Positions 2,063-25,913 of a DNA stretch of 64,000 bases are shown in pieces. Under the pieces are notes generated by a model, which was not told the origin of the DNA, made no database searches, and was given only the letters and a program-made list of their open reading frames with translations. The DNA comes from an uncultured Nitrospiraceae bacterium (GTDB taxonomy: Bacteria > Nitrospirota > Thermodesulfovibrionia > Thermodesulfovibrionales > SM23-35), in assembly GCA_963727775.1 (NCBI GenBank), contig CAVSHB010000001.1, positions 1,376,001-1,440,000 on the forward strand, written 5' to 3'. A program made the translations under genes and the position numbers. Positions within the stretch are counted from its first letter, which is position 1. Each line of letters begins with the position of its first letter.

Positions 2063-2227
2063 GCCCCGATTATTCATGACTCGTGACGCAGCAGAGCAGA
2101 TGCAGTATCATCACTCATTCTCGGCCCGCTTCTGCGGCCCTCCGAGGAATCCCGATAAAATCGGGATAAAGCCGCTCCGATACAACATCTGCTCTGATTG
2201 ATCAAATAATTTATGAATAATACGGGC
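2063..2227. repeat. Palindromic structured non-coding element, copy A (MITE-like)
   Basis: Terminal inverted repeats GCCCCGATTATTCATGA / TTTATGAATAATACGGGC; inner stem CAGAGCAGATG/CATCTGCTCTG; core shared in inverted orientation with copy B. Confidence 0.7.
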
Positions 2228-2423
2228 TAATCTGAATATTCATAAACGAGGTAGGCACAGGCGAAAGTCAATAGCATGATTCTTGAAGGCGGATGTAGTA
2301 TTTGAGCGGCTTTAAATTCTTTCGCAGAAAGAATTTACCTCGGAGGCTCGATGTATATCAAGCCGAGAATGAGCGAAAATACTATATCCGCCATAGGATT
2401 AGAAATTTATGAATTATGATAGG
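2228..2423. repeat. Structured non-coding element, copy B (inverted relative to A)
   Basis: Ends ATTCATAAA / TTTATGAAT; stem GGCGGATGTAGTATTT/AAATACTATATCCGCC; core blocks GAGCGGCTTTA, CCTCGGAGG and GCCGAGAATGAG identical to the reverse complement of copy A. Confidence 0.65.
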
Positions 2424-2470: not shown

Positions 2471-3238
2471 ATGATATGCCCTAAGTGTAATTATGACCAG
2501 CCTGACGGCGGCATTGAATGTGTAAAATGCGGTATTGTCTTTGAAAAATATCTGTCGGTAAGAAAGCGGGAACTTGCTAATTCCGCGAATATTTCTCAGT
2601 TCAATAAAAAAGCAGATGAAGAATCGACCGGAACAGGCGCGTATCTAAAAAATCTGCTTTTTTATGTTAAGCCCGAACCCAATATTTTCTATTTGATCGG
2701 CAGGGTATTTGTGCTGTTAGTAATTATTGCCTGGGGCCTGAAATTTATTTTCTCTTCAATAGACAGCAATTATTCCGGGGCCAGTTTCATGCACCTTATC
2801 AATCTTCCTTTTCATGAGGCAGGCCATATATTATTCCGTATCTTCGGTCAATTCATGATGACATTGGGCGGGAGCCTGACACAGTTATTGGTGCCTTCGA
2901 TATGTCTTATGGCCTTTCTTATGAGGACAAAAGACCCGTTCGCGGCTTCAATTTCGTTATGGTGGGTAGGGGAGAACCTGATAGACCTGGCGCCGTATAT
3001 CAACGATGCAAGAGAGCTTAAGCTGATGCTGTTAGGTGGTGTAACCGGTCGGGATGTGGATGACTATCACGATTGGGAATTTATCCTGCGTAACCTGGGA
3101 TTGCTTGAATATGACCACCTGCTCGCTAAAGCCGCCCATGTGACAGGGGCGGTACTGATGATATGCGCATTTATTTGGGGAGGATTCATTTTGGTAAAGC
3201 AATATAAAACCCGTCATTCAGAGCAGGAAGTAAAATAA
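2471..3238 (+). CDS. Zinc-ribbon + M50-like membrane metalloprotease-family protein
   Basis: N-terminal CPKC...CVKC zinc ribbon; HEAGH (HExxH) within a multi-TM region. Confidence 0.75.
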   Translation: MICPKCNYDQPDGGIECVKCGIVFEKYLSVRKRELANSANISQFNKKADEESTGTGAYLKNLLFYVKPEPNIFYLIGRVFVLLVIIAWGLKFIFSSIDSNYSGASFMHLINLPFHEAGHILFRIFGQFMMTLGGSLTQLLVPSICLMAFLMRTKDPFAASISLWWVGENLIDLAPYINDARELKLMLLGGVTGRDVDDYHDWEFILRNLGLLEYDHLLAKAAHVTGAVLMICAFIWGGFILVKQYKTRHSEQEVK

Positions 3239-25304: not shown

Positions 25305-25913
25305 ATTAATTAAATTATATACCCCGCTGTCTCTGCGGGGGGGAAACCGTGAAGCCCCTTTTGAAAAGGGGGTTTGGGGGATTATAATGCTGTTACAATG
25401 GAACTGGGAAAGAGGCCTCATGCGGTCTATAAGATTCGATACCATTTGGTGACTGCTGTAAAGTACCGTAAGGTTTTGTTGAATGAGGAAGTTGAGAAAT
25501 GTATCAGAGAGACAATGAGGGGAATTACTGAACGGTACAATATTGTAATCGATGAAATTGGATTTGATGAGGATCATATACATATCTTCTGCGGTGCTCA
25601 ACCGCAATATAGCCCGAGTCAGGTGCTGAACGTAATTAAGTCGATAACGGCGAAACGAGTATTCGAAGAATTTCCGAAGATGAAGAAAGTAGAATTGTGG
25701 GGTGGAGAATTCTGGAGTGACGGCAAGGACATAGGAACGGTCGGGGATGCAACAAATGAAGAAGTGATTAAGCGATACATAAGGAATCAGACTTTGGATA
25801 AGTCTGAAATAGAGCGGCGCACAGGTCAGCTAAAACTGTTCAAAATTTAAAGATGCCATCGCTGGTGAGAGTTTTCCGAGATACCCCGCCGTCTCTGCGG
25901 CGGGGAGGTTCAT
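25305..25913 (+). mobile_element. IS200/IS605-family element, tnpA only (ends approximate)
   Basis: Related subterminal hairpins ATACCCCGCYGTCTCTGCGGSGGGGA at ~25319 and 25881 flank a Y1 transposase; right end ...GGTTCAT; lies between convergent genes. Confidence 0.85.
25398..25850 (+). CDS. tnpA: IS200-family HUH Y1 transposase
   Basis: YHLV.AVKYR, DHIHIF (HUH), LWGGEFWSDG, KRYIRNQ (catalytic Tyr). Confidence 0.95.
   Translation: MELGKRPHAVYKIRYHLVTAVKYRKVLLNEEVEKCIRETMRGITERYNIVIDEIGFDEDHIHIFCGAQPQYSPSQVLNVIKSITAKRVFEEFPKMKKVELWGGEFWSDGKDIGTVGDATNEEVIKRYIRNQTLDKSEIERRTGQLKLFKI

Follow-up and report, generated by a model that had tools for sequence, protein, structure and literature searches.

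Among the described RNAs, the TwoAYGGAY motif (RF01731) is the closest to the element reported here. According to the descriptions of it (Weinberg et al. 2010, PMC2864571; Gardner and Eldai, PMC4333381; Li et al. 2026, bioRxiv 10.64898/2026.09.22.753630), it consists of a long basal stem, a short inner helix and a pair of neighbouring hairpins separated by a single unpaired base. It also contains tandem G-A pairs and GGA loops proposed for CsrA. Its copy number swings widely, 68.4% of its doublets are divergent, and Li et al. 2026 leave open how its mobility and regulation are linked. All of these traits, including the open question of mobility, are shared by the family described below, which numbers from 0 to at least 121 copies per genome. 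The target of CsrA is a short hairpin exposing ANGGA, and one dimer binds two such motifs; the sponge RNAs CsrB, RsmY and RsmZ are described as exposing ANGGA in short loops (PMC7366521). The Bacillaceae-1 motif (RF01690), when read in reverse complement, is listed as a candidate with two CsrA-binding sites (PMC4333381). In the case of mobile DNA, the ERIC, Correia and QMITE2 elements, as characterized in PMC10969869, are short and intergenic, with terminal inverted repeats, a target duplication and a stable RNA hairpin, all of which they have in common with the present family. According to the same source, such MITEs with folded transcripts are mobilised in trans, and Correia elements are cut by RNase III.

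The window, which is the whole stretch of DNA analysed here, comprises 64,000 nucleotides of an uncultured Nitrospiraceae bacterium (GCA_963727775.1, contig CAVSHB010000001.1, positions 1,376,001 to 1,440,000); its genome is referred to as G000. An earlier note, made from the sequence alone, had described near the start of the window two adjacent inverted copies of a multi-stem element, copies A and B. The pair proved to be a divergent doublet, with the core on the minus strand in copy A and on the plus strand in copy B. The three sequence blocks that the note had reported as common to both were recovered at the same coordinates and lie on opposite strands in the two copies. The structured fold claimed for them was confirmed by comparison with shuffled sequences. 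Both copies, read on either strand, folded better than all 200 shuffles (0/200 as good), with z values of -4.7 to -6.3 for RNA and -5.1 to -6.1 for DNA. The doublet is located between two divergent hypothetical genes (ORFs 1593-1973 on the minus strand and 2471-3238 on the plus strand), and the Pfam search with both ORFs returned no family. The protein encoded by ORF 1593-1973 (126 aa) contains two cysteine-rich repeats, and its N-terminus is hydrophobic; copy A lies in the sense direction, 90 nt upstream of the start of this ORF. The search for terminators at the window copies found none, and promoter prediction gave five weak candidates, compared with 1.8 ± 1.4 in shuffles.

The core of the family has about 105 bases and is Y-shaped. 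It is composed of a closing stem (P1) of about 20 bp, a three-way junction with about 25 near-invariant bases, and two variable hairpins. Following P1, there are tandem G-A pairs, a 2-bp GC/GC helix, the junction with hairpin P2, one unpaired C, and the second arm. The latter contains a CUC/GAG helix, a bulge of 3 nt (GGA, in some cases GCA) and the variable hairpin P3b, and its register was set by covariation. In the alignment of 47 sequences, 94.4% of cells were paired, whereas shuffles reached 66.1% and slid controls 36.5-44%; both-sided changes were present in 28 of the 34 pairs. The same structure was returned, unprompted, by RNAalifold. The CUC/GAG helix is invariant and therefore has no support from covariation, so its pairing is putative. 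In P1, the ratio of G-U to A-C was 67:12 in 71 copies of the host and 176:38 in 143 others, although related copies inflate these counts. The excess of G-U over A-C indicates that one strand is the folded strand. Because of this bias, and because the CsrA-type loops track the csrA gene, RNA is favoured over single-stranded DNA, and the element likely acts as RNA. It is putatively transcribed. RNA contigs from four runs of a carrier genome, G467, covered the whole stretch and, being contigs, were uninformative as to strand, ends and level. Some copies depart from the common form. An extra hairpin after the second arm makes a four-way junction in the Desulfobulbales variants L373, L374, L377 and L379, while P2 of the G418 variants L369-L372 holds a branched insert of ~60-80 nt. 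A small palindromic repeat inside the 5′ junction strand was found in copies L635, L646, L650, L651, L656 and L661 of G800 and G932.

Copy A is a complete MITE of 163 bp (2064-2226). It starts with an outer inverted end of the IS1380 type (2064-2079, matching the resident IS1380 ends at 14 of 16 positions), followed by features of the minus-strand core in reverse order: the 3′ arm of P1 (2092-2109), the conserved junction strand that follows the second hairpin (2112-2123), hairpin P3b (2124-2139), the conserved middle junction strand with the GGA bulge (2140-2147), hairpin P2 (2149-2167), the conserved 5′ junction strand with its tandem G-A, GC/GC helix and GG-N-UU (2169-2177), and the 5′ arm of P1 (2179-2196). 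The inner inverted end, also of the IS1380 type (14/16), occupies 2210-2226. Copy B is an element of 193 bp (2231-2423) with the core on the plus strand. Its left end (2231-2247) is, judged by sequence, an imperfect IS1380-type end, and is separated from the core by a 40-nt spacer (2248-2287) that occurs only here in the genome. In the paralogue closest to copy B (C1:1193729-1193866, 92%), a short left end of normal form takes the place of the spacer. The core continues with the 5′ arm of P1 (2288-2303), the conserved 5′ junction strand (2304-2312), P2 (2313-2337), the conserved middle junction strand with the GGA bulge (2338-2345), P3b (2346-2363), the conserved 3′ junction strand (2364-2376) and the 3′ arm of P1 (2377-2392). 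A normal right inverted end of the IS1380 type (2406-2423, 13/16) closes the element. Thus, of the inverted ends that the earlier note had seen on both sides of each copy, those of copy A and the right one of copy B stand, and the left one of copy B is imperfect. The abutting ends share a 4-bp YTAR-type target site (2227-2230), with no exact duplicate at either far end. The closing stems pair as the note had proposed, and P1 covaries throughout the family. The junction is intact in both copies, except for one inner G-C pair changed to G-U in copy A (2112-2123).

A search for this element among known RNAs gave no match. Rfam 15, with its ribozyme and riboswitch models, was run on the window and on 27 further loci or stretches, and at none of them did it match the element. 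Likewise, no description of the family was returned by literature searches at the level of listings or by motif searches of the supplements of Weinberg et al. 2010; the supplements of Li et al. 2026 lay outside their scope. The family is an uncatalogued, cross-phylum and structured one. In a search with controls, RF01731 detected all three control loci and none of the five GGA-bearing family members examined; it also gave 0/5 on five genomes, in a search with no control match. Reciprocally, our family model scored TwoAYGGAY loci at no more than 15 bits, and the match was restricted to the outer stem. The window copies have the two hairpins on a basal stem and the multi-copy, divergent-doublet habit of TwoAYGGAY, and they lack the AYGGAY loops, the loops of P2 and P3b in both copies A and B being without GGA. 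Compared with TwoAYGGAY as it is presented in the sources above, the present family differs in the junction sequence and in the taxa that carry it. Its junction is far more strictly conserved and has a GGA bulge on the 5′ side, it outlasts the loss of GGA loops, and the element has identifiable MITE ends. In the case of Bacillaceae-1, no copy scanned gave an Rfam match, RF01690 having been used without a positive control. In comparison with CsrB, RsmY and RsmZ, with which the copies from csrA-positive hosts share exposed ANGGA in short loops, the family has two loops instead of many, a fixed junction and dozens of dispersed copies. No terminator was found at the window copies, and in G000 GGA loops are nearly absent and csrA was not found.

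The earlier note had named a chance local duplication as the alternative to a functional element. This is excluded by the number of copies in the host genome, where 72 were found by pattern and 73 by a covariance model built from 47 diverse copies. Four more loci in G000 are damaged derivatives, all truncated or internally deleted, and two further matches are due to chance. The copies are short, contain no transposase gene and, according to a crude ORF caller, are intergenic in 67 of 72 cases. Eight doublets lie within 260 nt, and by raw counts six of them are divergent, two convergent and none tandem. The genome encodes four full-length IS1380-family transposases (PF13701, E ≤ 1.4e-153) with the same ends as the MITE copies. 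IS-like ends were detected on both sides of 33 of the 72 copies (left in 40, right in 49), compared with a background of 87 in 2000 windows per side. Exact 4-bp target duplications flank 12 of these 33 two-ended copies and 2 of 4 copies of the parent IS, whose target is YTAR, 4 bp; neither window copy has one. The ends and the target are thus common to the IS and the host MITEs, whereas the resident IS1380 contains no core, and the interior of the MITE is not derived from it. This distinguishes the family from ERIC, Correia and QMITE2, at least as these are summarized in PMC10969869, since the interior here does not come from the parent IS and recurs in unrelated ends and in other phyla. Because the ends are those of a known IS, the wrapper is ordinary, and the novelty that the earlier note had seen in the element is restricted to the core, which is absent from Rfam. 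Similarly, of the partners with matching ends that the note had envisaged, a resident IS1380 transposase is present, and no HUH partner was found. The idea that a selected single-stranded fold is carried on a MITE is supported by the IS1380 ends together with the cross-phylum covariation. In several copies, e.g., C1:119125, the core has the opposite orientation within its wrapper, with the inversion at P1.

Other lineages carry the same core in other wrappers or in none. In Desulfobulbales, a different inverted end surrounds 8 of 43 copies, with duplications of 8-10 bp in 4 of these 8. In G418, a third end, TA-flanked under a search pattern that demanded TA, surrounds 9 of 34 copies. No parent transposase with matching ends was found for either wrapper. 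The ISAs1 group, which was our guess for the Desulfobulbales wrapper, was rejected with PF13808 in 0 of 10 genomes, and an IS630-type parent of the G418 wrapper was rejected with the end at 0 of 20 PF13358 loci. PF13701 itself was found in only 8 of 30 carrier genomes. In G415, the 50 parsed copies have no common flank, and a target duplication was seen in 1 of 50, compared with 2.6 in shuffles. The P1 arms of this genome have a mean length of 22 bp and still pair, with 47% identity between copies, while identity amounts to 69-76% in the proximal inner arms and 25% in the flanks. The presence of the same core in two other wrappers or none indicates that the core, not the wrapper, defines the family. 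Since more than half of the copies in G000 have no two recognisable ends and those of G415 have no wrapper, DDE transposition is not the sole route of spread. We rejected the copying of the stem from the target at each insertion as a rule, because P1 of G415 has its own consensus (0.47 vs 0.25 in flanks) and overlaps with a stop codon are limited to 11 of 423 copies, some of these overlaps being spurious. An autonomous form with an ORF in an arm was rejected as well, as inserts reach ~125 nt at most and none was kilobase-sized among the loci examined. A wrapper remaining after deletion of the core between the P1 arms was seen in two lineages (G000 C4:4093-4150; L408, L415 and L390).

Of 401 genomes of the phylum, 32 contain the exact core, and with a single exception these belong to Thermodesulfovibrionales; the reversed control gave 0. 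BLAST detected it in 23 of 24 genomes of the host family. A scan of species-representative genomes yielded at least 119 stretches, including ones from Desulfobacterota, Planctomycetota, Competibacteraceae, Parcubacteria and Saccharibacteria, so that beyond Nitrospirota the family extends to Desulfobacterota, Planctomycetota, Gammaproteobacteria and Patescibacteria. The covariance model, with 150 candidates scored per genome, gave at least 121, 2, 6, 46 and 4 copies in five such genomes, the highest values being those of G415 (at least 121) and G418 (at least 46). The distribution among relatives is patchy (2/41, 10/41 with 0-37 copies, and 2/40 genomes). In Desulfobacterota, 10 of 301 genomes matched by pattern and 7 of these were real on inspection. 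One carrier of the family, Desulfurivibrio dismutans AMeS2 (record L183), is cultured. In the metagenome scan, P1 was paired in 101 of 120 distinct matches. Phage and plasmid collections gave no real match, and viral contigs gave 0 exact matches and 66 loose ones without the closing stem or the 5′ junction. Single matches at L115, L152, L184, G946, G1004 and G1032 were dismissed on inspection as due to chance. The copies in L088 (Elusimicrobiales) and L117 (an archaeon) resemble those of Thermodesulfovibrionales and stand on short contigs that may be mis-binned, so these two were not counted as hosts. No recurring mobile-element neighbour of the core was found among the G000, genome and metagenome loci.

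In Desulfobulbales, G418, G511, G446 and family f7 of the host order, both hairpin loops are usually GGA in an ANGGA-like context. The loops were also compared by eye with the fuller CsrA consensus. Within the host order, csrA was found in 1 of 24 genomes of the host's family, in 0 of 6 and 0 of 5 genomes of two other families, and in 10 of 11 genomes of f7; it was not found in G000, G415 or G417. Both loops were GGA in 19 of 24 csrA-positive genomes versus 2 of 29 csrA-negative ones, a count that covers the 53 of 58 genomes that were parsed, most of them by one or two copies, and in which kin are not independent. In G000, both loops are GGA in 1 of its 70 copies. The contrast recurs within one order, and also between G446 and its relative G415. 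All five further Desulfobacterota checked have csrA, and G759 mostly fits with GGA loops. The csrA-positive G800 and G932 have lost a G in the second loop, in 11 of 13 and 7 of 8 of the listed loops, respectively. Other exceptions are G020, with csrA and without GGA, and G417, with GGA in one loop and no csrA found. Taken together with G800 and G932, these counts show that two GGA loops almost imply csrA, while a genome with csrA need not have GGA loops. The link thus runs in one direction, and it is clumped by phylogeny. Where the host has csrA, the loops are predicted CsrA-binding sites.

We consider it somewhat probable (about 0.55) that the element is a scaffold made of RNA, with arms that bind CsrA and can be exchanged and a junction that a protein recognises, and that it spreads as the cargo of transposons. 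In the host, the core would have been copied around the genome between IS1380-type ends, likely by the resident IS1380 transposase acting in trans. In csrA-bearing hosts, the hairpin tips would bind CsrA, and the two loops likely fit the two sites of one dimer; in the csrA-lacking host, the tips would have drifted. The junction probably adopts a tertiary fold that a host protein binds and that selection maintains independently of CsrA. The family would then be a sister of TwoAYGGAY, a multi-copy scaffold picked up repeatedly by unrelated non-autonomous transposons. The junction drifts more slowly than the ends. In the largest subfamily (29 copies), 9 of 725 junction sites (~1%) and 73 of 1102 P1 sites differ from the majority, as do 69 of 377 and 77 of 493 sites of the transposon ends (146 of 870 when summed); these end values are inflated by a few flipped or unrelated copies, and dropping the four worst rows from each gives 14% and 11%, so that the drift of the ends ranges overall from 11 to 18%. 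Against this explanation, the core could also have stayed young through gene conversion between copies, and the tests made name no protein that binds the junction. As the presence of CsrA-type loops largely follows that of csrA and the junction stays fixed, a putative sponge role is separable from a more conserved role of the junction. On the mobility-regulation question left open by Li et al. 2026, the present family is a natural experiment, in which the ends responsible for mobility are identifiable in one lineage and the core is found elsewhere in two other wrappers or without any.

A reading that goes further, and that we hold to be rather unlikely, makes the junction the active core of a new class of selfish RNA, either catalytic or enzyme-recruiting. 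Such an RNA would spread between phyla without a gene, colonise unrelated ends, refresh sister copies by exchange of arms and acquire the CsrA-loop module specific to the host. If true, it would account, in a way that can be tested, for an expansion of TwoAYGGAY-like repeats that has so far lacked an explanation. Another account, an ordinary MITE with a core that is now functionless, is unlikely in our view. Bursts, gene conversion and template-switch repair at hairpins would then mimic conservation and covariation. The standard IS1380 ends fit this account, and so do the copies found in six records at the junction of two genes that, from reading their translations, we take to be pyrK and pyrD. 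Compared by eye, these orthologous copies keep a locus-specific P1 and differ in P2/P3, which are of widespread types, and they are inverted in two near-identical records; this suggests a possible exchange of arms between copies. Locus-specific stem extensions in G415 (8/57 vs 2.1% of mismatched pairs) point the same way, as does L315 (G415:C23:25616-28759), where two convergent genes end in the same 11 bases within a single closing stem of 31 bp, a sign that the end of a gene may have been copied in inverted form. However, a functionless core does not explain why the same ~25 bases persist across phyla in spite of unrelated arms and three wrappers, why G-U exceeds A-C on one strand, or why GGA loops track a host gene. 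The retention of a copy at the pyrK-pyrD site, where PyrD is merely 70-77% identical in the records compared, also speaks against it, and so does the finding of only four broken derivatives in G000, all truncations or deletions. The copies compared for drift were selected on the core, but a stem-only search revealed no hidden pool of point-decayed copies.

The conserved junction could also be a catalytic core, i.e., a new self-cleaving or self-ligating ribozyme class in which cleavage frees the RNA and makes sense insertions in operons costly. A three-way junction whose nucleotides are near-invariant and whose stems vary freely, together with the tandem G-A and the conserved bulge, would suit a ribozyme, and the core is antisense to both neighbours more often than co-directional with them (32 vs 6 in G000, 51 vs 18 in a mostly Nitrospirota set, and 20 vs 8 in the metagenome). 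Nevertheless, no ribozyme model of Rfam matched, and the bias is absent in small samples of G415, G418, Desulfobacterota and Patescibacteria (6:3, 3:7, 8:7, 3:2 and 2:2, with crude gene calls). A sense copy persists between two operon genes (L073/L169), and the G467 RNA contigs, which cannot show ends, contained no joints or common ends; we regard a ribozyme as quite unlikely. It is highly improbable that the element is a single-stranded DNA fold recognised by a HUH transposase (IS91/Y2 or REP-associated Y1) with the DDE wrappers being secondary. The core folds well as DNA, Y1 and Y2 transposases are encoded in both G000 and G415, and in the metagenome locus L530:1-755 a complete core lies ~20 nt past the stop of an IS91-family Y2 transposase, on the same strand. 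Yet L530 is one of 61 neighbours scanned and the sole such case found. There was no core at its closest relative found (58% identity), at 28 other Y2 loci, at 11 Y2 loci of G000 and G415, or at 10 Y1 loci of carrier genomes, and G418, G467 and G417 gave no Y2 match. CsrA-type loops make sense only for RNA, and the core shows no clear relation to GC skew, which is itself weak. We also find it very doubtful that the element is a non-autonomous retroelement, with its RNA used as a template that a host reverse transcriptase copies and that re-inserts or overwrites sister copies. The at least 121 copies of G415 without ends or target duplications would be in agreement with this, as would arms that appear swapped at fixed loci and the UG27 reverse transcriptases, which are described in Li et al. 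2026 as copying ncRNA hairpins between short conserved motifs. But there is no core within 1.5 kb of 12 reverse transcriptase loci, and no reverse transcriptase match in G418, an incomplete genome with at least 46 copies. The UG27 motifs quoted in Li et al. 2026 are absent from the core, and the UG27 units reported there form arrays beside the reverse transcriptase in prophages, in contrast to a family with 0 exact matches in viral contigs.

G000 is rich in transposons, with at least 30 PF13701, 22 Y1, 5 Y2 and 7 reverse transcriptase matches. One of five equal-scoring copies of an IS200-type tnpA in this genome is located in the window at 25425-25790 (G000 C1:1401425-1401790), and IS200-type tnpA elements sit in the right inverted end of two copies of the family (G000 C1:672113-672676 and C3:133614-134177). 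In G417, locus L301 (G417:C5) encodes a reverse transcriptase of 358 aa; a small ORF lies next to it, and the end of an upstream gene is nearly repeated there, a layout that we take to resemble a diversity-generating retroelement. The same genome, 0.5 Mb in size, contains three similar reverse transcriptases.
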